Below are positions 3,361 through 51,300 of a DNA stretch of 64,000 nucleotides, piece after piece. Made by a program: the position numbers and the translations under genes. The notes under the pieces were generated by a model, which saw nothing but the letters and a program-made list of their open reading frames with translations, was not told the origin of the DNA and did not search any database. The stretch is from the sequence record NC_007023.1; one strand, given 5' to 3'. Origin of the DNA: Escherichia phage RB43. How positions within the stretch are numbered: position 1 is the first letter of the stretch; each line of letters begins with the position of its first letter.

Positions 3361-4004
3361 TTAATTAAACTTATTGTACAGCATGAAGTTTACACCGATT
3401 GAACTTAGGGAGGTACAAGCTCGTTCCAGGTCGTCCGCTTCAATTTCGATAACGAATTTCGTTCGTATTAAAGCTGGCGCGACTTCTTCGACAGAAGGTG
3501 TAGTGACTTCTACGACAGGTTTATATACGTTCTTATCATGATCAGGAACATCATCGAGATACTTCAACATTTGATTGATGTATCGTTTATCTGAGTATAC
3601 AAACCGCTTCGCATTCGTCAGAAGAGAACGCATTTTAGAGCGGGTTGTAACTTTTGTACTTTCTTTGTATCCGCTACTTTCGGTGTTAAGAAAGTTTGGA
3701 TTGCTATCCAGCATAATGATAGACGCTAGATTGTTTTTGTGGAAGTATCCCACGAGTTCATTACGAGACTGAGAGAAACAAGCACATAAGCCTCTTCACC
3801 TACCAGATACATTTGTATATGTACTGGCGCTGTAAACATTTTGTTTATGATTTTATGGAATCGAGTGTTTTCCGATAAACTGCGTTGTCTTGTATAACTT
3901 TTGAAAATGTTATCTTTGACAATGGTCGCCATCGTTTCGATGTGGTTTAGCGATTTCCCAAGTAACGGGTTCAGAAAAACTTCTTTTTTCGGTACATAAG
4001 CCAT
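3361..4004 (-). CDS. hypothetical protein, apparently split by a frameshift (ORFs 3361-3753 and 3726-4004 overlap near an A5 run)
   Basis: Two overlapping same-strand ORFs, both frames open across the junction ~3740-3800. Confidence 0.3.
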
Positions 4005-4020
4005 ATTTCAAATTCTCTTT

Positions 4021-4311
4021 TTAGTGCATGAAAGATTTAACGTACTTCAATATTTCTTCACGACATGTGTCAACGCTTGTGTTTTCGGCAATCATAGCAT
4101 GACAAAGTATCTCACCGTCAAGCCAAAACGTCAGCATGTATTGAATATCACGACCTTCTGTTGCTTCCTGATGATACTTGATTTTCGCGAAAGCAGTTTC
4201 GATACTTTCGGTTACTGTCAACATTTCGGAATCACCATCTACAGCAGCCATTTCCCCAGCTTCTTCGCTGAATTCGCTTTCCAGTTCTTCCCAGTATACT
4301 ATCGTTATCAT
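4021..4311 (-). CDS. hypothetical acidic protein (96 aa)
   Basis: minus ORF preferred over mirror plus ORF 4024-4314 (Phe/Cys-rich, atypical). Confidence 0.4.
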   Translation of the reverse strand: MITIVYWEELESEFSEEAGEMAAVDGDSEMLTVTESIETAFAKIKYHQEATEGRDIQYMLTFWLDGEILCHAMIAENTSVDTCREEILKYVKSFMH

Positions 4312-5754: not shown

Positions 5755-7974
5755 TTACAGTTTAACTTCTTTTTCTTCCAGAACGATTTCGCAATCGAAT
5801 GTTGCACCTTCCCAGAATTTATGCGGGATAATGTCAGTCGCTTTAACCGATACTTTGGTTTCTTCAAAATCCAGATCCGCAAACCAGGCGTGGCCTACAA
5901 CGATACCATACATTACACGGCTCAGGCGCTTGTTCAGTGCGCGTACTTCGTTGATGGTTGCCTTTGTTTCTTTATCAAGGTACTCGATTACCTTATCCTT
6001 GTCAAGCGCTGCGAGTTCAGCTTTAACAGAATCGTAAGCCCACAGGATGATCAGGTCGCCGTTGTTCAGTTTCTTCTTACCTTCGGCACGTTTCGCAACG
6101 GTTGCCGCTACAGCAGGAAGGGAGGAAACACCCTTGATTTTCAGATTCAGTTCTTTCGACATATAAACATCAGTCGAATCGGTACTGGTTACTTTCGGGG
6201 AGAATCCATAATCACGAATACCCTGTTCAGATAACCATTCACCAGCGGCTTCACCGTATTTCTGTTTCAGACCTTCGGCATTACGTAAACCGATCGCGTC
6301 GTCACGGAAGAACTTCATCACCTTCTGGCGACCTTTCAGGATTTCCAGACGGATAGAGTCGTTTACATACTCTTTACCGGAGATCCCGCGAGTCATCGCA
6401 CGGTTAACCAGGGGCAGACTGGTAAAGTCAACCAGTACCGACATGCGGTCTTCACCGATTTTTGCCAGCGGCTTGATAGTCAAACCAGAAGCGCGAAGGT
6501 TTTTCAGTGTCGGAATATCAGTTTCCAGCGGCAGAACCTTAACGTTTACGATACCGTCTTTAACGATGGTAAAGTTACGTACCTGCTTAGTTTCGATCTG
6601 TTCAGGCAGTTTCAGTTCTTTCTGTTTGCTTTCTGGGATAGTTACGTAACCCATCAGATCCGTGTTAATGGAAATGTTAGGACGTGAACTGTTACCGACC
6701 AGGTGCTTAACCGATACTTTGGTTGTAGTCTGGGTAAATTTCGGTGTCCAGATTTCATGCGTTACCATTTGCGCCGCAAGTGCTTTGCGTTCTTCCGGTG
6801 TTTTCGCGTTTGCAATCTGTTCAGACAGTTGATCCAGAGTATCATCTTCTTTCTGTACCGTCTGACGGCCTGTGCGGTTGTACGCCCAGTGTTCAGAGGA
6901 CAGGTCGATCACAGTGTCGGTTTCTGCCAGCAGTTCGAGAGCGTCAACCAGAGTGAACGCGTTTTCGTCTGGAACCATGTTGTAATCAACACCATCGAGC
7001 AGACGTTTAGCCGGATCAACTACCGCTTCCGCGATCAGGTCTTTCGCGTTGGAATAGTCCTGTTTGGTAAAGCAGTTATCATACGCCTTAATCAGACGAA
7101 CATCACCCAGCTTTTTCAGCACTTTCCATGCAAGGTCAGGGTTCATTGTGTGTAGCGCATGATACAGCACGACATACAGAACCTGTTCACCTTCCAGAGT
7201 AGCCGGATCGAAACCGTCGATGTCGTTGATTGCGTTATCACCCAGCGCCCAGATGTTTTTGATGTGCTCAGGAACCAGAACAACACCGTTTGCAGCGTTC
7301 AGGACATACACACGCCCTTCGTCCAGGTAGATAGCATGGGTTGCGTCAGCAACTTTAACTTCGACGCGAGCGGAGGTTTGCGCGGTGATGATTTCAGCAA
7401 ATGCTGGCTCGTATGCGTCGAAACCTTCAACGAATTTATGCAATGCGTTGGTTGCTTCTGCCATTTTTTCCAGCAGAGGACGGTTAACATAATAGCCGTA
7501 TTCCAGGAATGCAATGCTGTTAAACGTCAGCGGGAGAACCGCACACGCTTTCAGGATGTCATCGGTACGCCAGCAGTTATCATAACCATCAGTCAGGAAG
7601 ATCAGGCTGTTCAGGTTGCCGTTTTCGGATTGCAGGTCGGTTGCGATTTCAGCAGCCAGATTCAGTGGTTCAACAAAACCAGTACAACCAGTAGGTTTCA
7701 GATAACGGTCGATCGCGGTACAGATATTGGTCAGATCCGATACGTTGCTAACCTTCTCACCACGGAACACAGTACCGTAATCGCCTTTGCTGGAGAAGTA
7801 CAGGATCGAAACGGTGTCATCCTGTTTAACCAGACTCGCCAGGTTTGCTTTCAGGTGCTTACGGATCTTCGGCAGTTCGTTATACATTGAACCGGAAACG
7901 TCGCAAACGAAAACGTGGTTGGTCGGAGTCGGCTTAGATACTGCGTTTTTGAATTCGATATTTGTAATTGACAT
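5755..7974 (-). CDS. von Willebrand factor A (vWA) domain protein, 739 aa
   Basis: N-terminal MIDAS motif VFVCDVSGSM (DxSxS) and downstream IFLTDGYDN; long C-terminal region of unknown function. Confidence 0.8.
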   Translation of the reverse strand: MSITNIEFKNAVSKPTPTNHVFVCDVSGSMYNELPKIRKHLKANLASLVKQDDTVSILYFSSKGDYGTVFRGEKVSNVSDLTNICTAIDRYLKPTGCTGFVEPLNLAAEIATDLQSENGNLNSLIFLTDGYDNCWRTDDILKACAVLPLTFNSIAFLEYGYYVNRPLLEKMAEATNALHKFVEGFDAYEPAFAEIITAQTSARVEVKVADATHAIYLDEGRVYVLNAANGVVLVPEHIKNIWALGDNAINDIDGFDPATLEGEQVLYVVLYHALHTMNPDLAWKVLKKLGDVRLIKAYDNCFTKQDYSNAKDLIAEAVVDPAKRLLDGVDYNMVPDENAFTLVDALELLAETDTVIDLSSEHWAYNRTGRQTVQKEDDTLDQLSEQIANAKTPEERKALAAQMVTHEIWTPKFTQTTTKVSVKHLVGNSSRPNISINTDLMGYVTIPESKQKELKLPEQIETKQVRNFTIVKDGIVNVKVLPLETDIPTLKNLRASGLTIKPLAKIGEDRMSVLVDFTSLPLVNRAMTRGISGKEYVNDSIRLEILKGRQKVMKFFRDDAIGLRNAEGLKQKYGEAAGEWLSEQGIRDYGFSPKVTSTDSTDVYMSKELNLKIKGVSSLPAVAATVAKRAEGKKKLNNGDLIILWAYDSVKAELAALDKDKVIEYLDKETKATINEVRALNKRLSRVMYGIVVGHAWFADLDFEETKVSVKATDIIPHKFWEGATFDCEIVLEEKEVKL

Positions 7975-40548: not shown

Positions 40549-41402
40549 TAATATCTGTTCCAGACTTTTTTTGCCGAGAACGGTTTTCCTTTCGACACAA
40601 ACGCCTGTGTAGGCAACCAGACAGCTTTAGCCCAATCTTTCGGGGCTATTTCTGCAAGTGGTGAACGCAAATGGGCTGGTAGGTAGACTTTGATCATTTG
40701 ATCAGCCCCGCGCATTCCTTTTACGTTGTTCCAGTTGATTTTCAATCTGGTTTTGTTTGAAAGGCGATCCGTAGATCCGTAACCGCGTTTCAAGAGTTCT
40801 TCTAAGAATTCCTGTCGTGCTTTCGGTGGCGCATAGTGCAAGTTCAATCCATATAGAACCACGTTACCCGCTTTAGAACGTCCTGAACCCAGGAAGATGA
40901 TTAGCGGGAACCGATCCCAGTACGGTAGGGTGTCTTTATACTTCGCGTCATACACGAACGTATACAGGCGACCTGTTGCTGGTTTCGCTACCCTGTGCGT
41001 CTTGATACTGGTTTTGATGAAGTCACCAAACCATTCAGTCGATTCTTTCTGACGTTTCGCAGCGGGAACACCAACTGTAATTTTCCTTAAACTGTTTCGG
41101 AAATCGTTGATGATGTCAACCGTATGTTTTTTGCGATAGTCGTTACGTTTTCGTCGGGCTTCGGTTTCTGCCGTGCGTCGTGCGATTTCGTCATCAATTT
41201 GCTGTTTGTAACGGTGCATCGACTTCGTGAACGTCGCATATGCAATTCCGTTATCGTCTGCGAATTTTTTGGCTGTCATGCCTTTTAATTTTGCGCGTCG
41301 GAATTTAATACCAATCTCAACCCATTCCCCCAGCTTTCGCTTCGGTGGCGGTTTTGGCTTATCTTCTTCTGCGATGATCTCGAATTCAAATATAAAGCTC
41401 AT
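40548..41402 (-). CDS. 2: DNA end protector protein gp2
   Basis: 284 aa (T4 ~274); basic; synteny 3/2/4/53. Confidence 0.7.
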   Translation of the reverse strand: MSFIFEFEIIAEEDKPKPPPKRKLGEWVEIGIKFRRAKLKGMTAKKFADDNGIAYATFTKSMHRYKQQIDDEIARRTAETEARRKRNDYRKKHTVDIINDFRNSLRKITVGVPAAKRQKESTEWFGDFIKTSIKTHRVAKPATGRLYTFVYDAKYKDTLPYWDRFPLIIFLGSGRSKAGNVVLYGLNLHYAPPKARQEFLEELLKRGYGSTDRLSNKTRLKINWNNVKGMRGADQMIKVYLPAHLRSPLAEIAPKDWAKAVWLPTQAFVSKGKPFSAKKVWNRY

Positions 41403-41423
41403 AATTCCCTCCGTTTAGGGTAT

Positions 41424-41891
41424 TTATTGCCCTTTCCATCCGAACACACGTTTTAACGTATCTTCTGTGATGATTTTAAATTCCCAGCCCTTTTGCTTCG
41501 CTGCTGTGTTCGCTGCTTTCCATTTGTCAATGTTCACTGCATAAGTATACAGGGCATCGACAAATTTCTTTTTGTTGTGAACATTATTGTTCGCTGGTTT
41601 AGGCGGGGGCAATGTTTCTTTCATTGGCTTGACTTCCCATAGGTAAGTAACGCCATTATCCATTTCAACATAAAAATCCATGAAGTAACGCCGTCTTTTA
41701 CCGTCTGCGTTGCTGAAATATGGGATCACTACCTCTTCACTGTTCCAGCGTTTTACATGCGGGTTTCTATCAAGCCAGTTCATGATGTATTTTTCCCAGC
41801 TTGAACGATACGTTATCTTTCGCGGATCGCCTTTATATTTTGATATGTTCTGGGGCATAAAAGACCCCTTGTACGTCTGTCTTCCAGCCAT
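41424..41891 (-). CDS. 4: head completion protein gp4
   Basis: 155 aa (T4 ~150); divergent from gp53. Confidence 0.65.
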   Translation of the reverse strand: MAGRQTYKGSFMPQNISKYKGDPRKITYRSSWEKYIMNWLDRNPHVKRWNSEEVVIPYFSNADGKRRRYFMDFYVEMDNGVTYLWEVKPMKETLPPPKPANNNVHNKKKFVDALYTYAVNIDKWKAANTAAKQKGWEFKIITEDTLKRVFGWKGQ

Positions 41892-41935
41892 TATAGATCC
41901 TAAATATAGTAAACATTAGATAGGGGAAATTACAA

Positions 41936-42490
41936 ATGTTATTTTCGTTCTTTCCACCAGTTGATTACAACGGTACACCAACTACTGATATCTTTCGTGA
42001 TTATCGTTTTTACTTTAATCGTGTGATCAGGAATTATAAGCCGCGTACATATCAACTGACAGGTTCATTAAGACCTGAACAATTAGCTGAAACGCTATAC
42101 GGAAACCAACAATATTATTGGGTTATCCTGATGCTCAATGACAACTATGACCCGTTTTATGGTTGGATCACAGATCAGGAAACAGCTTATCAATGCGCTG
42201 TTCAACGTTATTCAAAAGTAGGTGGTGAGCAGGTTCTTTATCACATGGATGGGAAAAACAACCGATATTACAATCTGGTTGAAGATCCTAACAACCCTGG
42301 TCATTGGTATGACAAAGGTGATAAAGACATGCGTTATTTGCAGTATCAGGGAACATTAGTCCCTATTGATATTTATGAAGACGCAGTGTTGAAAAATGAA
42401 TCAATGCGAACCATTAAGATTATTAACCCTTCGGATATTCAATCGTTTGTAAGCGATTATATCAAGGAAATGGAAAAGGCAAACACATGA
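41936..42490 (+). CDS. 53: baseplate wedge subunit gp53
   Basis: 184 aa; directly precedes and overlaps gp5. Confidence 0.65.
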   Translation: MLFSFFPPVDYNGTPTTDIFRDYRFYFNRVIRNYKPRTYQLTGSLRPEQLAETLYGNQQYYWVILMLNDNYDPFYGWITDQETAYQCAVQRYSKVGGEQVLYHMDGKNNRYYNLVEDPNNPGHWYDKGDKDMRYLQYQGTLVPIDIYEDAVLKNESMRTIKIINPSDIQSFVSDYIKEMEKANT

Positions 42491-44256
42491 AATACGGTGG
42501 AAACCCATATTCCCCTTTCTTCGAAGGGGTGGTCGAAAATGTCGATGATCCTCGTTATCTGGGGCGCGTACAAGTTCGTGTGTTCGGTGAACATCCGGCA
42601 CAGAAACAAAAATCTGAAACTATCGGTATTCCGGTAGAAGAATTGCCGTGGATGATCCCTATCCAGGACATCACAAGCGCTGCTGTATCGGGTGTGGGTT
42701 TCTCTCCTACTGGTATCGTAAGGGGTAGCTTCGTTGTAGGTTACTGGCGTGATAAATGGCATCAGGACGGGGTTATATTAGGAACCTATGCAGGACAGTA
42801 CACAGAAAAGCCGGATACGCAGAAAGGCTTCTGTGACCCTCTGGGTGAATATCCACGTTATGTGGGTAACGATGTCAACGTTCTGGCTCGTGGTGGTTTA
42901 GACGGTAAAACATCGTCAAGTGTTGTTATCCGTGATGCAAACAGCACACTCGCTGTTAATCCAGACGATAGGCCGTTAGATGAAATTCCAGAAGATAACC
43001 GACCGGATACTGGGGGCTTTACAATTGAAAAAATGATCCGTGGTGATGAAGGTATTCGATTGACATGGTATTATGATGTCAAAGGGTATACCATCGGGAT
43101 TGGACACTTTTTCTTAACCGCTCCACAAGGTACAGATCCAGCAGTTGTTAACGCAGCGTTATCTAAACAAATTGGTAGAACTGTTACGGGTGTTCCTGGA
43201 TCAATCACAGCAGAAGAAGCGGGTGTTTTATTCCAGCAAGATTTGGCTAAAGTTCGTAACGATATTCAGAATAACAGCAAAGTTCGTGAAGTTTATGTTG
43301 GGTTAAATCGCCCACGTCAAATGGCGATCGAAAACATGTGCTTCCAGATGGGTGTTGGTGGTGTCGCCAAATTTACGAATGCTCTTGCAGCAATGAAAGC
43401 ACAGGATTGGAAGACAGCCTATAATGAGTTGCGAAATTCAACATGGGCTAATCAAACTCCTGGGCGTTCTTCGCGCGTATCTAAAATCGTGTTGACAGGA
43501 AACCTTGAATCATATGGTGTTATGGTTCCAGATCCAGAAGGACGCAGTTTAAGTGCTGCTTTTTCTGGTGTTGTTTTGCAAACTGATTCAAACCCAGAAG
43601 ATCCGTTTGTTCCTGGCGATACTCGCGTAATGTTCGAAGAACCGAAATCATCGTATAACGCATCATATCCATATAACATGGTATTTGAATCACGTTCAGG
43701 GCATATTCAGGAATTCGATGATACACCAGGTTATGAACGATATAACCGAGTACACCCAGCAGGAACATATGAAGAAATTCGACCTGATGGAACCCGCGTT
43801 GTTAAAATAGTTGGTGATGATTATCTTATTGTTCAACAGGGCAGAAAGGTAAACATCAAAGGCAATTTACAAGTGGTAATTGAAGGTGACGCGTTCATTT
43901 ACAATATGGGTAACGTTCAACAGACTGTTGACGGAAACGTGACTGAGTTTGTACGCGGAAATGTTAACCAGACTGTCGAAGGTGAATACGTTGGACGCAT
44001 TAAGGGCAACGCTGAATTGACTGTTGAAAAAGATGCTACCGTAAACGTTGACCAGAATTTAATGGCTAACGTTAAACAAAACGCAACTGTTCACGTCACA
44101 GAGGATGCACTTGTTACCGCGAAAAACGCAATGATGGATATTGAGCAAGATTTCGATCTTAACGCAGAAAATATCACAATGGTTGCGCGAACAAATACAT
44201 TCATCGATTCCGGTTCTCTGACTAAGATAACTGGTGGAACGGTTCAGGTGGGTTAA
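42487..44256 (+). CDS. 5: baseplate hub subunit and tail lysozyme gp5 (cell-puncturing device)
   Basis: 589 aa; T4-lysozyme-like core YDVKGYTIGIGHF; C-terminal beta-helix VxGxxxxx repeats. Confidence 0.9.
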   Translation: MKYGGNPYSPFFEGVVENVDDPRYLGRVQVRVFGEHPAQKQKSETIGIPVEELPWMIPIQDITSAAVSGVGFSPTGIVRGSFVVGYWRDKWHQDGVILGTYAGQYTEKPDTQKGFCDPLGEYPRYVGNDVNVLARGGLDGKTSSSVVIRDANSTLAVNPDDRPLDEIPEDNRPDTGGFTIEKMIRGDEGIRLTWYYDVKGYTIGIGHFFLTAPQGTDPAVVNAALSKQIGRTVTGVPGSITAEEAGVLFQQDLAKVRNDIQNNSKVREVYVGLNRPRQMAIENMCFQMGVGGVAKFTNALAAMKAQDWKTAYNELRNSTWANQTPGRSSRVSKIVLTGNLESYGVMVPDPEGRSLSAAFSGVVLQTDSNPEDPFVPGDTRVMFEEPKSSYNASYPYNMVFESRSGHIQEFDDTPGYERYNRVHPAGTYEEIRPDGTRVVKIVGDDYLIVQQGRKVNIKGNLQVVIEGDAFIYNMGNVQQTVDGNVTEFVRGNVNQTVEGEYVGRIKGNAELTVEKDATVNVDQNLMANVKQNATVHVTEDALVTAKNAMMDIEQDFDLNAENITMVARTNTFIDSGSLTKITGGTVQVG

Positions 44257-44258
44257 TC

Positions 44259-46331
44259 ATGATCATGGATTATGAATCAATAATTGATGGTATTATGCAA
44301 GATTTTCAGCATCCGTGTGATGCTGAAATACCTGCTGGATCGTACAGGCGTATTATCTGGCAGGGACACACAGAAGATTACCCCGCTGTTGGGGTAGAAT
44401 GGGATACAGAAATCATTCCGATCGGGACGCATCTTTACACGCAATCCCCGTTTGGACAGAAAAGCGATCCGCTTCCGGTTGTCAACTCCCCAGGTACAGA
44501 TCCGGGTACTGGGGAAGCAACAGGGATTCTCGTTGCTAAAATTGGTTATTATTTCGCTACTCAACAAGAAATTGATGACTATATCACCTCTATCGGGGCT
44601 ACTAAGCTCGCAGGTAATGATTGGTATGGTGCGGATCTGACAAAAGCGAACCTGTTCAAAAACCCAGGCGAACTTGCAATGTACAAGGTCGAGAACTCAG
44701 GCGGTTATCTACTGACTTCTGGCCCACAATGCGATCAGCGTATCAGACAGGCGTATAATAGCGACACAGGCGCGTTTACAAGCGTTGATTACTATTGGAA
44801 TGGTAATCGTATTGCCTACATGAAACATGACGACACAGGGGCGCACAATTGCAAATACGTGGGTATGGTGGTTAACACCAACGCAGACACAAGCATTCCC
44901 CCTGTACCTCCGGCTATGCCGTCAATTTACGGGGCATTGCCTAGCGAAATTTCAATGATGCGCTCCGGTTTGGGTTGTCTTCCTGCAACGGTAGGTTTTG
45001 CGTACACGAATATCAGTGATGCAATGCTATCCGCATGGAACGAAACGCGCAAGTCGTTTAAGCTCGTGTTTGATATGCTTACGGGTATCACTAAAACGGG
45101 TTCCGGTGGTATCTCCACGATGTACGATGGTTTGTCTATCGCAATGGAGGAAATCACAGCGGGTGCTCTTGCGTTGTCACAGCAAGCATGGCAAGCCGCA
45201 ATTAAGGTGTTCAAAGATATTATGTCTTCTGCGTTAAACATCGTAGGTGGTGCGTGGAACATGATAATGAGTTTTTTACCAACTGTTACGATTCTGGGTG
45301 TTTCAATAAACATCTATGATCTGATTTTCGGTGATAACTCAGTGCAGACACTGAAAGATTCATTCCAGGCGATCATTGATGCTGGTACAGAAACCTATGA
45401 GAACGTCATAAACGCAATATACAGCGCTATAGGCAGTGCATACAATTATACCGTTGAATATGTCAAGGCTGGCGCTCGCGACCTCGTGGATGCTTGCAGT
45501 ACGCTTTTTGACTGGTGTATTACCATGTTTCAAAATGGTTGTGTTGCTCTGGTGGATCTGTATGGGCGAATAATGCAAATCTGGGCTATGCCTCCAACGG
45601 TTCCAAACCCTTTATGGGCTGCTGTTCTGGCTATCCGTAACATTATGATGCAGATCAAGCCGCTTGATGTGATCCTGGGTGGAAACTTCCCTGGGTTTAC
45701 GGCAATGGATTTGTACCAAATGGCACAGGAGAAGGTGAAAGAGTTTATCGATCAGTCGTATGCGCAAATACGCGTGTATTATGAACAGGTGAAGGATCTG
45801 ACTAGCACGTTGACTACACAGACACAAGAAAGGGATGCGATTAAACGCAAGTTCGATCAATACCTTAACTGGATGTGGGGCGCTGTTACAGATGCTGCTA
45901 CCGCTGCATATCAGGCTGCATTAGATGCTGCAAACGAGGCAATCGAGCAAACCAAAGCGCTTATCGCTGGCGTTAAAGCACAGATAGCCGCTCTACAGGA
46001 CGCGATGAAAGATACGTACAGCCTTGCGATGGAAGAACTTAAAAAACTTCCTTTGATGCAGCAGATTAATGAATTCTTAGGCTTCTGTGGGATTGCTTTT
46101 GATGATCTGCTGAAAACCTATGATAACGCGGTTACTGGGGCGAAATCATTATATAAAAACTTTGTTGACAGTTCCCGATCGTTTAAGGATACATGCAAAG
46201 TCATATATAACCAGATATGCACACTTGCTCTAAGTAAGGTGACTCAATACGTGAATAAACTGTTGTCTTTAATCGGACTCGCGATCACTTTTGCGTCAAT
46301 TAATATCTGCGTCCCTATGATTCAACTATAA
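44259..46331 (+). CDS. large hypothetical protein (690 aa) between gp5 and gp6; hydrophobic helices and coiled coil
   Basis: Starts 3 nt after gp5 stop; beta-rich N-terminus, central and C-terminal hydrophobic helices; occupies the slot I recall holding T4 5.1-5.4. Confidence 0.7.
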   Translation: MIMDYESIIDGIMQDFQHPCDAEIPAGSYRRIIWQGHTEDYPAVGVEWDTEIIPIGTHLYTQSPFGQKSDPLPVVNSPGTDPGTGEATGILVAKIGYYFATQQEIDDYITSIGATKLAGNDWYGADLTKANLFKNPGELAMYKVENSGGYLLTSGPQCDQRIRQAYNSDTGAFTSVDYYWNGNRIAYMKHDDTGAHNCKYVGMVVNTNADTSIPPVPPAMPSIYGALPSEISMMRSGLGCLPATVGFAYTNISDAMLSAWNETRKSFKLVFDMLTGITKTGSGGISTMYDGLSIAMEEITAGALALSQQAWQAAIKVFKDIMSSALNIVGGAWNMIMSFLPTVTILGVSINIYDLIFGDNSVQTLKDSFQAIIDAGTETYENVINAIYSAIGSAYNYTVEYVKAGARDLVDACSTLFDWCITMFQNGCVALVDLYGRIMQIWAMPPTVPNPLWAAVLAIRNIMMQIKPLDVILGGNFPGFTAMDLYQMAQEKVKEFIDQSYAQIRVYYEQVKDLTSTLTTQTQERDAIKRKFDQYLNWMWGAVTDAATAAYQAALDAANEAIEQTKALIAGVKAQIAALQDAMKDTYSLAMEELKKLPLMQQINEFLGFCGIAFDDLLKTYDNAVTGAKSLYKNFVDSSRSFKDTCKVIYNQICTLALSKVTQYVNKLLSLIGLAITFASINICVPMIQL

Positions 46332-46333
46332 AT
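46326..46333 (+). promoter_or_regulatory. T4-type late promoter (TATAAATA) for gp6
   Basis: Exact TATAAATA followed by RBS AAGAGGGG and ATG 46355. Confidence 0.6.
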
Positions 46334-46354
46334 ACCCGATAAAGAGGGGTAATA

Positions 46355-48269
46355 ATGGCTACCGTAAAGAAACAAATTAATCAGATCCCCGATATTTTTG
46401 TCGGGGCTACTTTTGATGAAATCAAATCGGAGTTTGATTAACTGGCTCCGAGGTCAGGACGAATTCAAAGATTATGATTTCTCTGGCTCGCGTATGAACG
46501 TGCTTGTTGACCTGCTGTCTTACGCGACATTGTATATTCAACAGATGGGTAACAGTGCTCTATTCGAATCATTTATTCGAACTGCGGCGCTTCGTAGTTC
46601 TGTTGTGCAACATGCTCAGGATTTTGGTTATATGCCGGATTCCCGTACTGCTGCAAACACTTCGATTCTGATTACAGCAAATAACCCACTGAACCCAACT
46701 TCAATTCGTATTCCTCGTGGTACGAAATTCATTGGTACAGTAAAAGATACGAACAGCTTCCCGTTTGTTGTGTCTGATGACGTTGTAATCGTTCGTGATA
46801 AAGATAACAACTATGTGTCGATGCTGAATATCGTACAGGGGCGTTTGGTTCGTACCGAAGTAATCTATGATGGTTCTACTATCCTGATCCGAGATCCGAA
46901 CATTGACCGTAGTCAGGTTCGAGTGACGATCAACGGCGCACAGTGGGACGATTGGACAAACGAAAGTATCGTTAACGCAACGGGCGCAAGTACCGTTTTC
47001 TATATGCGTGAAACGGTAGACGGACATACAGAGGTTTATTTCGGTGAAGGTGAGACAAGTCAACAGGTCGCGGGTGGTGCTCTTACCGCTGACTATATCG
47101 GGGGCTTGAAACCTGCAAACGGTTCTGTCGTTGTTATTGAATACATTTCAACCAACGGCGAAGAAGCAAACGGTGCTGAAAACTTTGTTTACGTGGATAC
47201 GTTGACAAACATCAGCATTACAAGTATTGTTGAGAACCCGACCAACTCTGCTGATTATGTCGGTGCTGATGGTGGTGGTGAACCGGAAGACATTGAACGA
47301 ATTCGAGAATTAGCCCCGATCATGCGTGAAACGCAGCGTCGTTGTGTTACTGCATCGGATTACGAATCATTCCTGTCGCATCGTTTCGGCTCTGTGATTC
47401 AGGCGGTTCAGTGCTTTACCGATAGTGAAAAACCTGGATATGCGTTCATCGCGGTTAAACCGAAATCAGGGTTGCGCCTAACCTCAGTACAGAAAGAGGA
47501 TATGCAAAACTATCTGGCTAAGTATAACCTTGCGACAATTACGCCGTCGATTCTCGACCCTAACTATCTGTATATCGTACAAAGCATTAAAGTCACGTAT
47601 GATATCAGTAAGTTAATCGAGTCAGAAGAATGGCTACGTGGTCAGGTTATCAATGAAATTGACAAGTATTACACTGATAACGTTGAAATTTTCAACAGAT
47701 CATTCAGTAAATCGAAGATGTTGACTTATGTCGATAACGCTGATGTGTCAATCATTGGTTCCTCTGCGACGATTAGCCTGTTGCGTGAACTGGATAACTA
47801 TTACAGTGCGCCGATGTCTGGTATTCACTTCTTAAACCAGGTTGCGTCAAGATCTGTTATTTCTAACGGGTTCAAATATACCAACGCAGATGATGATTCA
47901 TATGATGTGCGCTATGCGTCAACTGATATGGATACATCGACCGGACGTGCTAAGATTGTAATTGGCCCGTTTAAAGATGGTGATATTGCGATAACTCCGT
48001 ATGCTGGTAACGATTTTGATAAATACCCAGGGGTGACAGACAGAACGAAATACTATGAGGTTGGCTATATCGAACATTATAGCGATTTCATCAGCTTCGA
48101 TCTGGGTGTGCTTAACGTCCCAGCAGAACGCTTTAGCGCTGCATATATCGAACTGACTGCAAAACCATTGGAAGAAACCATTTTTACTCGTGATGGTTCT
48201 CTGATTGTATTTGAAAATGACCTTCGTCCTCAGTATACCACGCTGACGATGAATCCAATCAGTCAATAA
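46355..48269 (+). CDS. 6: baseplate wedge subunit gp6 (one-base frameshift near 46430)
   Basis: N-terminus ...IPDIFVGATFDEIKS in one frame, continues ...LINWLRGQDEFKDYDFSGSR... in next; matches recalled T4 gp6; C-terminus FTRDGSLIVFENDLRPQY. Confidence 0.85.
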
Positions 48270-48277
48270 TTTTAACC

Positions 48278-48302
48278 CCTGTCTTATGGCAGGGGTTTTT
48301 TG
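48278..48302 (+). terminator. rho-independent terminator after gp6
   Basis: cccctgtcttatggcaggggttttttg. Confidence 0.55.
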
Positions 48303-48347
48303 TTTGCTAAATATGGGATATAAGTAACGCAAATTTGGAGAAACATA

Positions 48348-51300
48348 ATGATTAAAGCGCCATCAATTACCAGTTTGCGCGTTGATAAACTGGCTGCTAA
48401 CTTCGTTTATTTGAAGTGGGATAGCGTCGGCATGGATTTTTACTATGTCGTAGAAATGGCTGAAACTCGCGGCGCGGGTGGTGCAGTGATTCCAGATGCG
48501 GATTTAACATGGTTTCAGTTAGGCTATGCTTATGCGAACGAATGGTTCTCTACTGCTGTGCAGCCTAATAGCTTCTATAAATTCCGTATTAAGGTTACGC
48601 ATCAGGGCTTTGAACCGTCTGATTGGGTTTACAGTGATGAACTCTGGACATTCACTCTCAACGCCTACGCATATTCAACCATGCGAGAATTTACACCGAG
48701 TGACGCATTTATAAACGAAAAATTCGCTAAAAACAATCAGAACTATGTGAACTTTAACAATGATGTGATCATGGCAGCGCTGATGAAAGAAGACTTTGTT
48801 TTCTCTCCGCTGTATACGGACGTATCCCAGATCAGTGATAAAATTCTTACTCAGGAAAACTATCACGAGATACAGGATCATATTGAACACGTTTGTAATG
48901 ACATTAACAGAACGTTTCTGGTTGCGTCAAATGGTTTGTTATACCTGTTCGAACGTTTTCAGAACATGGCTAAGGTATCCAATGACAAGGGCCAAACATG
49001 GCATTACTACAAAGCGTTTAACGACCGCGTAGGAAACCCTGTAGCGCGTTCTATCGCGTACCAAAGCACAAACACAACTTACGTATTGGGTTACGATCGT
49101 ATCTTCTACGGGCGCACCTCAACGGATATTCGCTGGTCTGCTGACGATGTGCGATTCTCTGCTGACGATATCACCTTTACAAAACTGGGGAACCAGACAG
49201 GGTTAGATTTTGATGTTGACTCATACAATACCTTTGCAAAACTTCCTGGTGATGTATCGAAATATGCAGAAGCAATGGCATGTTCCGACGATTGGCTTTA
49301 TGTTGCAGCGAAAAACATAGTTCGTCGTATTGCTCTGAAACAAACACCGATCGACACCGATCCGAGTTCTCCAACTTTTGGGGAAAAGATTTTCGACGAA
49401 ACAAGCTATACCATTGTTCCAGGCAATGATAAAATTGTTGTTAAGAAAATGGATGTGATGGACAGCAAACTTTACGTGCTCGTTACAGGCGAAGTTAAAG
49501 TTGCTCTGCAAGATCCAACAAAACCGGAAAACGTAGTTCCTTCTGTTGATTCTGGTGTGTATCAGTGGCAAGAAGACACTAAAACCTTTGTGCGCCTGTA
49601 TGGGAACACTGAGGAAGAACGTTTCTTCATTGAACATGAATACACCAATATGTCAACAAACGGAAAAGAAATTTATATTTCTGTTGCCAACTACAAATAC
49701 CCAGGAACTTTGCCAGATCCTGAACTGCTGATAACTAATCCTGAATTGGTTGCTGCTGTTAAGTATGATTTGCGTCCTGGCTATACTGCTAGTCTGTCTA
49801 TCAACTTTGCTACTATTCGAGCAAATATTGATGATCCGACCGTGTGGAAATTCGGCGCACAGGAATACTACAACGAGGCAAATTATAGCTGGTTCTTCCG
49901 TGATTCTGTTCGTACATGGATCACGAATGATAACCGTCCGTTGGTTGTGTATCCGAAAATTGTATATGAAATGGTAACTGATACCGCTGGACCTTCTTCT
50001 ACGTTGCGCGTCAACAAAGAGGTGTGGGATCGTGGACATGTTACAATTTACATTAACAACATTAAATTTACCGGATTTACCAAATACACTAACGGTGTGT
50101 TGTTGTATAAAAGTTCTGGTGAAATTATCGGGTTCTTTGAACTGAGTTACCGCGCTCGTGATAGCCTTACGATTTTCTGGAAACCAGATAACACATTACT
50201 GATTGCGGATCTTATTCAGCAGGAAAGGGAACAACCTTATGTACCGGATTTGTCGCCCGGTTTGATTGATCCTGATTTAAGCCATATGATTACTCGCTTT
50301 GCACCACAAAGCTATCTGGATCAGGAATATTTCGAGAAGTTTGGTGAATATTATTTGCAGTTCGTTTCGTTGGGTGAAAACACCTACTATAACAAATTGC
50401 TGAACCTTATCAGGAACAAATATCCACGCGAGAAGAACTGTGTTGAATATTTGTGGTCGGAAGTAAACCGACGCAATATCTATCTGGATAAAACGAAGCG
50501 TGATCAAGTTGTGCGATTCTTTGAATCCCGTGCGAGTGATTTTTACTCCACGAAAGGTATCGAGGCAAGTTATAAATTCCTGTTCAAACTGCTGTACAAC
50601 GAAGACGTATCCGTAGAAATCGAGAGTTCAAACACTCTGGAATATGATATACTGGTTTCTTCGACTAACATCAGTCAGGACATTGTAGGGCGCACGATTT
50701 ATACACCAACAGCAAGAGCAAACGTGACATATATCGAACGTGATTATGAAGACGGGCAATTGCGATGGTCTATGACTCTGCATAACGTGATCGGTAACTT
50801 CCTTGAAGGACAGGTTGTTAAGTCAGAAAAGACTAATTTCACGGGTAGTATTCTGCGTGGTGTTCGTGGTAAGCAAATGGCGAACAACTCGATCGACTAT
50901 TTCAACCGTGGGCGTTCATACTACGTGATGAAAATCCGTTCAAACCTTCCGGCTTCTCGTTATAAAGATGACGTGTTGCGGTTTGTGCATCCGGTAGGTT
51001 TTGGCTTTATCGGGATCACTATGCTGACGGTGTTCATTAACTCCGGTTTGTCGATGACCCATAGTGAAACAATCATTGATATCCTCCGAAACTATCGCTT
51101 TGATAGCGGATATCCTAAGTATTGGCCCGATCGTGTTGCACGTCTTGACGGTAACGGAAACCAGACATTTGACCTTGTAACAGGTGAAGCATTATATGAA
51201 CCACACCCTAAAGCGGGGCAACCGTTCGATGTTCCACCACAATATGACATTGATGAACAACCGTTAAACGGTGTTTTGCCGTCTGCGCGTCGATTCGATC

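Follow-up and report, generated by a model that had tools for sequence, protein, structure and literature searches.

What does Escherichia phage RB43 encode in the slot between genes 5 and 6, where T4 has the gene for its spike cap gp5.4? In T4 this interval holds 5.1, segC, 5.3 and 5.4, bearing out the gene order (5.1–5.4 between genes 5 and 6) given in the first-pass annotation of the window, i.e., the 64,000-nt stretch of RB43 sequence (record NC_007023.1) that was analyzed; in RB43 the slot is filled by a single uninterrupted ORF of 690 codons plus stop, orf205w (here ORF205), with gp6 and then gp7 downstream (Table 1). That annotation took the product for a membrane-helix-rich protein, possibly associated with the spike or forming its tip and carrying an additional domain, and for a candidate of undescribed biology. 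The locus touches a wider matter, namely how contractile-tail phages, T4 included, proceed from piercing the outer membrane to opening a channel in the inner one.

The gene turns out to be described. A 2025/26 preprint, 'The spike tip protein of bacteriophage T4' (bioRxiv 2025.08.28.672839; PMC12407873), has already named orf205w as the putative RB43 spike tip. The sections of it available to us present an RB43 cryo-EM map at 17.7 Å with a larger spike tip; an architecture with residues 1–220 α/β and the remainder helical; a low-confidence AlphaFold model; and the hypothesis of a unique spike tip, and these sections contain no comparative genomics (PMC12407873). An attempt to co-express the protein with a piece of the gp5 β-helix did not succeed; the fragment given in the methods is T4 gp5 residues 484–575, and the construct for RB43 is unstated in those sections (PMC12407873). 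If the T4 fragment was indeed the one used, failure would be expected, the cognate RB43 gp5 end being the proper partner. To what these sections hold we add mutual exclusivity with gp5.4, an occurrence matched to the gp5 tip, the breakpoints of a cassette exchanged between JS98 and SP18, a confident structural model, a negative fold search, a shuffle-controlled tape-measure signal and cysteine co-variation.

Table 1. Features at and around the gene 5–gene 6 interval of RB43, in window positions
Feature	Coordinates	Strand	Remarks
Gene 53 (baseplate wedge)	41936..42490	+	Pfam Phage_gp53, E 7e–63; opens the gp53-gp5-ORF205 run
Gene 5, central spike (OB domain, lysozyme, triple β-helix), 589 aa	42487..44256	+	Pfam, phrog_430
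RB43-type gp5 C-terminal tip, last ~75 codons	44029..44256	+	ends ...DSGSLTKITGGTVQVG; inherited together with ORF205
Shine-Dalgarno-like GGTGGG	44247..44252	+	within last gene 5 codons, 6 nt 5' of ATG; read from sequence
ORF205 (RB43 orf205w)	44259..46331	+	putative non-PAAR spike-tip protein; phrog_5296; named in PMC12407873
N-terminal α/β domain, residues 1–210	44259..44888	+	C20, C198 invariant
Connecting region, residues 211–294	44889..45140	+	strand 237–245 bears C240
Stretch matching tape-measure PHROGs, residues ~232–663	44952..46247	+	11 tape-measure PHROGs, best E 4.8e–13
All-helical C-terminal domain, residues 295–671	45141..46271	+	AlphaFold; includes moderately hydrophobic 328–358
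Long antiparallel helical hairpin, H482–536 / H545–582	45702..46004	+	AlphaFold model
Conserved hydrophobic C-terminus, residues 672–690, C684	46272..46328	+	modelled as β-strand 681–689, not TM helix
T4-type late promoter box TATAAATA	46327..46334	+	overlaps ORF205 stop codon
Gene 6 (baseplate wedge)	46355..48269	+	Pfam Gp6 domains

ORF205 matches phrog_5296 with E = 0 across residues 3–689 and is 100% identical to the RB43 record, and the gene upstream is clearly gene 5 (Gp5_OB at 3e–66, Phage_lysozyme and Gp5_C). The position directly after gp5 was correctly noted in the first pass; a gap of 2 nt separates the TAA at 44254–44256 from the ATG. The ATG at 44265 (Met3) could equally be the start, judging by the alignment of homologues. 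ORF205 is made from the late message region that it has in common with gp5, across the 2-nt junction, a spacing that suggests translational coupling of the two genes. The box TATAAATA at the end of ORF205 is the sole exact late-promoter match on the + strand between 41000 and 49000, and presumably serves gene 6. Gene 6 itself is frameshifted in the window near codon 26 relative to HE981739.1, by an extra G at 46432.

Full-length homologues (35–97% identity) were found in 214 phage records, forming 53 protein clusters; conserved along its whole length across distant Straboviridae, ORF205 is no chance ORF, and the 690-aa reading frame that had been called after gp5 is confirmed. The order gp53-gp5-ORF-gp6, with junctions of 0–4 nt, recurs in KP15, SP18 and PSTCR6, and the gene order is repeated in two distant metagenomic T4-like contigs; in phiKp_19 a homing-endonuclease gene (HNH) lies between gp5 and ORF205. 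A profile of the N-terminal part, run against 1.84 billion representatives, returned only the ORF205 family, and a homologue search with the full family gave no further members.

The first-pass annotation had proposed comparing the gp5–gp6 interval across T4-like genomes, and it is this comparison that exposed both an exclusivity and an exchange. Records with gp5.4 numbered 1422, and a chimeric query joining gp5.4 to ORF205 matched 1593 records, none of which (0 of 1593) had the two side by side. Genus counts for gp5.4 and ORF205 were exactly additive: Escherichia 578 + 25 = 603, Klebsiella 161 + 113 = 274, Shigella 80 + 3 = 83 and Enterobacter 36 + 20 = 56. The two genes are mutually exclusive across phage records, and RB43 lacks gp5.4 (best E 1.1 for T4 gp5.4 by tblastn against the whole genome). 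The end of gp5 showed the matching pattern. With the last 65 aa of RB43 gp5, tblastn retrieved 214 records, whose genus breakdown was that of the 214 ORF205 records; the last 60 aa are 22–27% identical to T4 and 42–70% identical among ORF205 carriers. SP18 gp5 is closest to T4 gp5 in every domain except these last 60 aa (22% identity), which instead resemble those of other ORF205 carriers (42–53%), so that the gp5 tip follows ORF205 and not phylogeny. Between the close relatives JS98 and SP18, homology ends at gp5 residue ~520 and returns ~10 nt before gene 6, the swapped unit comprising the last ~60–75 codons of gene 5 plus either 5.1 and 5.4 or ORF205. The gp5 tip and ORF205 thus travel from phage to phage as one cassette. 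The last gp5 strand of T4 binds gp5.4 (PMC4576200). The matched occurrence, this cassette swap and the low-resolution map (PMC12407873) lend indirect support to a putative binding of ORF205 at the blunt β-helix end.

We think it probable that ORF205 is a virion protein seated where the gp5 β-helix ends bluntly at its C-terminus, replacing the PAAR cap gp5.4 and perhaps gp5.1 too; a large and unusual non-PAAR spike-tip protein is the most likely, if putative, identity. The spike-tip idea of the first pass, with an extra domain in the gp5.4 slot, thereby gains backing from the exclusivity with gp5.4, the matched gp5 tip and the JS98/SP18 exchange, and from the larger RB43 tip described in the available part of the preprint (PMC12407873). 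At 75 kDa the protein would be very large for a piercing tip, and co-inheritance with the gp5 tip would be expected also of a dedicated folding chaperone. Such co-variation is seen for the chaperones of fibres and spikes, whose genes directly follow those of their clients. On that account ORF205 would fold, trimerize or cap the variant gp5 tip during hub assembly and would not be retained in the virion, and the larger cryo-EM tip would be something else. The T4 gp5 tip fragment 523–575 cannot fold alone (PMC4576200), and ORF205 has so far no proteomic detection: the virion proteomics literature held nothing usable for any ORF205-carrying phage, with no relevant data for KP15/KP27, phiEap-3, ECLFM1 or vB_EcRAM-01 or in the STEP3 paper, and the only proteome found for a related phage, Morganella MP1, is uninformative, as gp5 and the products encoded downstream of it all went undetected. 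(The ValerieMcCarty Klebsiella phages fall in another genus.) We nonetheless hold a chaperone to be unlikely: RB43 lacks gp5.4 yet shows extra density at the tip in the available part of the preprint (PMC12407873), the swapped cassette holds no other candidate gene, a protein of 690 aa with two domains and tape-measure-like character does not resemble the known spike chaperones, and T4 gp5 requires no such factor.

For the putative tip protein, AlphaFold gave a confident full-length model (pLDDT 86.7, pTM 0.75), in which the connecting region 211–294 is confident in the full-length prediction only. The most conserved motif, I112–G148 (..SIGAT..NDWYGADLSK..E..MY..EN.GG), lies in the N-terminal domain. 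This region had been described as β-rich with His and Cys; it is α/β in the model, and among the 48 family members examined the cysteines are conserved (C20 and C198 invariant, C240 and C684 nearly so) but the histidines are not (H18 in 33/48, H37 in 12/48, H58 in 28/48). Neither the PDB nor BFVD yielded a fold match for the N-terminal domain; PDB sequence searches, whether by single sequence or by the N-terminal or full profile, gave coiled-coil noise only, and NCBIfam gave nothing. The coiled coil and long helices seen in the first pass are borne out by the hairpin at 482–582, but not as several long hydrophobic helices, the two internal ones quoted being amphipathic. On the Kyte-Doolittle scale (19-residue window, threshold 1.4, checked in the 48 members), RB43 ORF205 exceeds threshold solely at residues 328–358 (1.63) and 665–690 (2.03). 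Across the family the C-terminal segment (664–690) is TM-grade in 38/48 and segment 330–358 in 11/48, and no signal peptide or multi-pass TM pattern was evident by hydropathy in these members. The label 'membrane-helix-rich' was thus overstated, since family-wide the C-terminal ~25 residues alone are TM-grade, and a topology of several TM helices is not supported; we rejected a multi-TM membrane protein, the single conserved TM-grade segment being itself modelled as a β-strand. In the model this hydrophobic strand packs back onto the protein, a placement supported by the loss of C240 and C684 as a pair across the family.

The hydrophobic C-terminus could also suit an unrelated accessory or membrane protein, for superinfection exclusion or host takeover, that landed in the hyperplastic gene 5–6 interval, a known insertion hotspot as segC in T4 and the HNH endonuclease in phiKp_19 attest. 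This seems to us very improbable for a gene that sits within the late structural operon across a 2-nt junction, is conserved at full length across distant Straboviridae, shares no record with gp5.4, matches the gp5 tip variant in count and genus, and encodes neither a signal peptide nor a multi-pass TM pattern.

If ORF205 takes the place of gp5.4, it does not do so as a relative. The first-pass annotation had suggested checking the N-terminal ~120 aa against gp5.4 and PAAR models, and this check yielded no similarity in sequence, profile or fold, so kinship there was rejected. PAAR/DUF4280 gave no match to RB43 ORF205 at E ≤ 1, and the 25 families that the 48 members hit most frequently (E ≤ 1) include neither PAAR nor DUF4280. 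The ORF205 family profile scored an hhalign probability of 0.1% against T4 gp5.4 and of 0.4% against T4 gp5.1, i.e., no homology. ORF205 does not have the small conical three-β-hairpin fold of PAAR tips, and the apex metal site (3 His + 1 Cys in gp5.4) has no conserved equivalent in the 48 members.

A different likeness emerged further along the protein. The tape-measure PHROG families matched by residues ~230–660 include 1272, 4200, 167 and 1535, and no match remained after reversal or in any of the shuffles (two global, three local); a composition artefact is thereby rejected, and the similarity, over ~430 residues, depends on residue order. Pfam tape-measure models gave no match to ORF205. 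Eleven such families, together with the helical C-terminal domain and the automated label 'tail length tape measure protein' that some GenBank records attach to homologues, would agree with an internal, ejected protein housed in the gp27–gp5 hub cavity or the tube lumen, leaving with gp29 and building a trans-envelope channel with it. That, too, strikes us as improbable. RB43 keeps its own gp29 (576 aa; phrog_7361, E = 0; T4 gp29 family, 1.9e–9), located by tblastn with T4 hub proteins at the canonical place between gp28 and gp48, and ORF205 is not at this tape-measure locus. BLASTP found no similarity between ORF205 and gp29, and hhalign of family against family gave a probability of 2%, so ORF205 was rejected as a gp29 paralogue. 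Its co-variation is with the distal end of gp5, far from the lumen, and its model (pTM 0.75), compact, in two domains and globular at the N-terminus, does not look like an extended tape measure. The GenBank label is probably wrong, since a distinct gp29 is present in these phages.

As a spike tip, ORF205 would dock on the gp5 platform, including the last β-strand that in T4 binds gp5.4, with its hydrophobic C-terminal strand tucked in the resting state against strand 237–245. Sheath contraction would carry it through the outer membrane, and it would be released with the spike into the periplasm, where its helical, tape-measure-like domain may open up and then act upon the envelope, e.g., by assisting the tube and the ejected gp29 in reaching or opening the inner membrane. 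The membrane-active step is one that we purely infer, the lone TM-grade segment being modelled as a buried strand. A bolder version, which we hold doubtful, makes the RB43-like tip a 'spring-loaded' translocator, folded and tape-measure-like: once the outer membrane is crossed, the hydrophobic C-terminal strand would detach from the N-terminal domain, and the helical domain would insert into or bridge to the inner membrane and nucleate a DNA conduit. If true, a single protein would do what in T4 is shared out between the PAAR cap and a portion of the gp29 machinery that is ejected, and would parallel, on the phage side, PAAR-effector fusions and type III translocators. For the spike-tip reading in general, a putative 75-kDa non-PAAR tip exchanged as a cassette with its matching spike end offers a natural A/B experiment, in JS98 vs. 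SP18 and in T4 vs. RB43.

To our knowledge, nearly every spike tip described so far is either a small PAAR cone or an HxH apex fused to the spike. T4 gp5.4 and the PAAR tips (PF05488 / DUF4280; PDB 4KU0, 4JIV, 4JIW) are likewise encoded downstream of the spike gene, and gp5.4, like ORF205, is found in the gp5–gp6 interval, paired with a specific gp5 C-terminal platform and presumably closing off the β-helix at its blunt end. The PAAR type binds that end as one copy per spike, a binding that is putative for ORF205. PAAR proteins can bear large extension domains, e.g., T6SS effectors; these are enzyme or toxin domains, whereas the C-terminal part of ORF205 is helical and tape-measure-like, and the whole protein is seven times larger than gp5.4 (690 aa vs. 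97 aa). The fused apex of the P2 gpV type resembles ORF205 as a non-PAAR finish for the membrane-attacking spike end of a contractile tail, but it consists of a small HxH domain that binds Fe and is continuous with the spike chain, whereas ORF205 is a separate 75-kDa protein with no conserved histidines. Tape measures (T4 gp29, lambda gpH, T5 pb2) have in common with it long helices, a hydrophobic end, a moderately hydrophobic central segment and plausible ejection into the periplasm; unlike them, ORF205 is predicted to fold compactly, is globular in its N-terminal domain, and co-varies with the spike tip and not with tail length.

ORF205, the product of RB43 orf205w between the central spike gene gp5 and gp6, was classed in a 2006 publication (PMC1524935) as novel, having no meaningful match to any domain. 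It is 100% identical to positions 107851-109923 of Pseudotevenvirus RB43 HE981739.1 (tblastn vs. a phage collection). The first-pass annotation correctly placed it in the slot of T4 5.1-5.4, an interval that in T4 contains 5.1, segC, 5.3 and 5.4. The spike-tip idea that it advanced is a hypothesis already in print, unproven: the passages on this gene in a 2025 bioRxiv preprint (latest version March 2026; PMC12407873) state that RB43, RB16 and Lw1 are without gene 5.4, and that the 5.1-5.4 locus is held by orf205w (~690 aa; 1-220 α/β, remainder helical), whose AlphaFold model there was of low confidence.

Coordinates of the genes in the window and of the modelled parts of ORF205
Feature	Position	Strand	Remarks
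gp53	41936-42490		upstream of gp5
gp5	42487-44256		upstream of ORF205; Gp5_OB, lysozyme, Gp5_C domains
ORF205	44259-46331	+	690 open codons
α/β domain	residues 1 to ~270		AlphaFold2 model
lower-confidence linker	between α/β and helical domains		AlphaFold2 model
helical domain	residues 295-671		long hairpin 482-582; AlphaFold2 model
terminal β-strand	residues 681-689		AlphaFold2 model

gp5 ends in TAA (44254-44256), and two nucleotides, TC, separate this stop from the ORF205 ATG. A GGTGGG box lies 6 nt 5' of this first ATG; many homologues have an 'MNY...' start that fits a second in-frame ATG, at 44265, better, which leaves a two-codon ambiguity in the start. Klebsiella phage phiKp_19 (LC768482.1) has a 194-aa HNH/NUMOD3 homing endonuclease (2140-2724) between gp5 and its ORF205 homologue, paralleling segC in the same T4 interval; thus the tight junction is not obligatory. 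The spacing in phiKp_12 is likewise ~590 nt. Downstream of ORF205 lie gp6 and then gp7. Compared with HE981739.1 the window carries one additional G, at 46432. In consequence the gp6 frame from ATG 46355 stops after 28 codons, and only from TTG 46398, in a different frame, does a long gp6 ORF stay open; the probable cause is sequencing or a difference between isolates, not biology (2 mismatches and 5 gap openings separate the two records over 20 kb). TATAAATA (46327-46334) matches the T4-type late promoter box exactly and overlaps the ORF205 stop just 5' of the gp6 RBS; 41000-49000 contains no other exact + strand match, and none lies 5' of gp53, gp5 or ORF205. Inside the gene 6 5' coding region, 56 nt past the ORF205 stop, a GC hairpin with a T-rich run behind it (46387-46406) resembles a terminator.

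ORF205 is a real, conserved gene. We found full-length homologues in 214 phage records, with hosts including Klebsiella, Escherichia, Enterobacter, Cronobacter, Citrobacter, Proteus, Salmonella, Shigella, Providencia and Morganella; these homologues form 53 clusters at 90% identity, the lowest identity to ORF205 being 35%. Carriers lie within Tevenvirinae (SP18, Gaprivervirus) and beyond (Pseudotevenvirus, Slopekvirus). Searched with the N-terminal 292 residues as a profile, 1.84 billion representatives yielded only 12 matching proteins, all of them, minus one spurious repeat protein, from the ORF205 family as full-length proteins (664-764 aa) or fragments; the two most distant members, too, lie directly 3' of a gp5 gene, in T4-like metagenomic contigs. 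On contig Ga0620835_007198, a distant T4-like phage encodes a 389-aa gp5 (219-1388) with OB domain and β-helix and without lysozyme domain, immediately followed 3' by a 743-aa ORF205-family protein. The order in the distant relative on metagenomic contig BOEU19-1 scaffold_330 (2542-2967) is gp5 - ORF205-like - gp25 - gp6 - gp7 - gp8, differing from RB43 and T4 by gp25 between the tip gene and gp6.

T4 gp5.4, the PAAR-type spike-tip cap, had no match in the whole RB43 genome (tblastn, best E 1.1); the same query found homologues in 1422 phage records, including distant Campylobacter and Rhizobium phages. A chimeric query of gp5.4 plus ORF205 residues 1-300 matched 1593 records, none of which (0 of 1593) covered the two parts side by side, with a second match place in just 5 (vs. 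6 for gp5.4 alone) and genus counts exactly additive for gp5.4 + ORF205 (578+25, 161+113, 80+3, 36+20). The two are thus mutually exclusive, never occurring in one record. Beside this alternation, we find it very improbable that ORF205 is an unrelated accessory gene.

The last 65 residues of RB43 gp5 were found in 214 records whose genus and host breakdown equals that of the ORF205 records; the gp5 tip tracks ORF205, not phylogeny. SP18 gp5 is nearest to T4 gp5 in OB, lysozyme, linker and mid-β-helix (58-69% identity), and its last 60 residues share 22% identity with T4 vs. 42-53% with the carriers RB43, KP15 and PSTCR6; the gp5 ending DSGSL.K..GG.VQVG is common to all carriers. JS98, a close relative of SP18, has 5.1+5.4 where SP18 has ORF205. 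These two are 80.5% identical in gp53, 87.7% in gp6, and in gp5 90-100% to residue ~480, 80% over 481-510, then 40%, 22% and 29% in consecutive windows beyond 510, with DNA homology ending at gp5 codon ~520 and restarting ~10 nt 5' of gene 6. From these breakpoints, the exchange unit is the gp5 tip with ORF205 vs. the gp5 tip with 5.1 and 5.4. The swapped gp5 portion corresponds to the T4 'gp5β-C' tip fragment (residues 523-575), within which the last β-strand binds gp5.4 (PMC4576200). Gene 5.1, with no Pfam match, lies inside the swapped cassette (JS98 6612-7151, T4 3722-4216, in coordinates of the compared loci) and so may be functionally tied to the gp5.4-type tip. The genomic evidence for a specific partnership of ORF205 with the distal spike end is strong, and alone is compatible with either a structural cap or a dedicated chaperone. 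A non-virion chaperone seems unlikely to us. The preprint's account of the RB43 spike describes a larger tip in a 17.7 Å C6 cryo-EM map, additional density at that tip, and unsuccessful co-expression of orf205w with gp5β (PMC12407873).

Our full-length AlphaFold2 model was confident (mean pLDDT 86.7, pTM 0.75; 48-sequence alignment). Modelled separately, the N-terminal part had block-mean pLDDT of at least 85 over residues 11-190 (mostly >90) and lost confidence past ~220, making it probable that the C-terminal domain is what residues ~210-290 pack against. Foldseek against BFVD returned ORF205's own family alone, no family member matched PAAR or DUF4280 models, hhalign against gp5.4 was null, and the N-terminal histidines noted in the first-pass annotation are not conserved; the PAAR/gp5.4 relationship it had proposed for checking is therefore rejected, and the N-terminal domain has no recognisable fold in PDB or BFVD. 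PDB searches gave no sequence-related solved structure for ORF205. The architecture is non-PAAR and two-domain. N-terminal conservation peaks at I112-G148 (WYGADL.K...E...Y..EN.G), which could be a docking surface or active site.

Across the 48-member set C20 and C198 are invariant, and C240 and C684 occur in 46 of 48 members, both missing from the same two sequences and also from both distant metagenomic members. This paired loss supports the modelled packing of the C-terminal strand, earlier read as a TM helix, against strand 237-245. The C-terminal stretch is the sole TM-grade segment in most members, and its burial inside the folded protein is likelier, leaving the description 'membrane-helix-rich' unsupported; a conformational change baring it is conceivable.

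Residues ~232-663 matched eleven 'tail length tape measure' PHROGs (best E 4.8e-13), none of which matched residues 230-690 when reversed, globally shuffled or locally shuffled; the signal thus hinges on the order of the residues, which rules out an artefact of composition. Nor is ORF205 the RB43 tape measure: a gp29 equivalent is kept between gp28 and gp48, and neither BLASTP nor profile comparison relates ORF205 to the gp29 family. Homologues in recent GenBank records (PP889458.1, PP889503.1, PQ657805.1) are labelled 'tail length tape measure protein', presumably by PHROG-based pipelines; despite this label, Slopekvirus (KP15-type) phages have a distinct gene for a gp29-type tape measure, and the annotation is probably an over-interpretation of HMM matches. 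With this domain likeness, ORF205 might be an internal, ejected tape-measure-like protein, which we doubt.

We favor ORF205 as probably a structural spike tip, supported by genomes through late-operon position with tight junction, gp5.4 exclusivity and gp5-tip cassette linkage. As such it would cap the gp5 platform, be driven by contraction through the outer membrane and leave with the spike, dissociating in the periplasm, where its tape-measure-like domain might afterwards act on the envelope. The partner expected for ORF205 would be the gp5 end of RB43 itself rather than the T4 fragment.

The present analysis adds statistics on exclusivity and co-occurrence, the breakpoints between JS98 and SP18, cysteine co-variation, a confident model, negative fold searches and a shuffle-controlled tape-measure signal. 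ORF205, of putative function, bears on an open question in phage entry and is not a new discovery: spike-tip proteins are a known kind, and this gene had already been proposed as one. As a proposed tip it is a clear variant, being non-PAAR and 75 kDa, with an N-terminal domain without fold match and a tape-measure-like domain.
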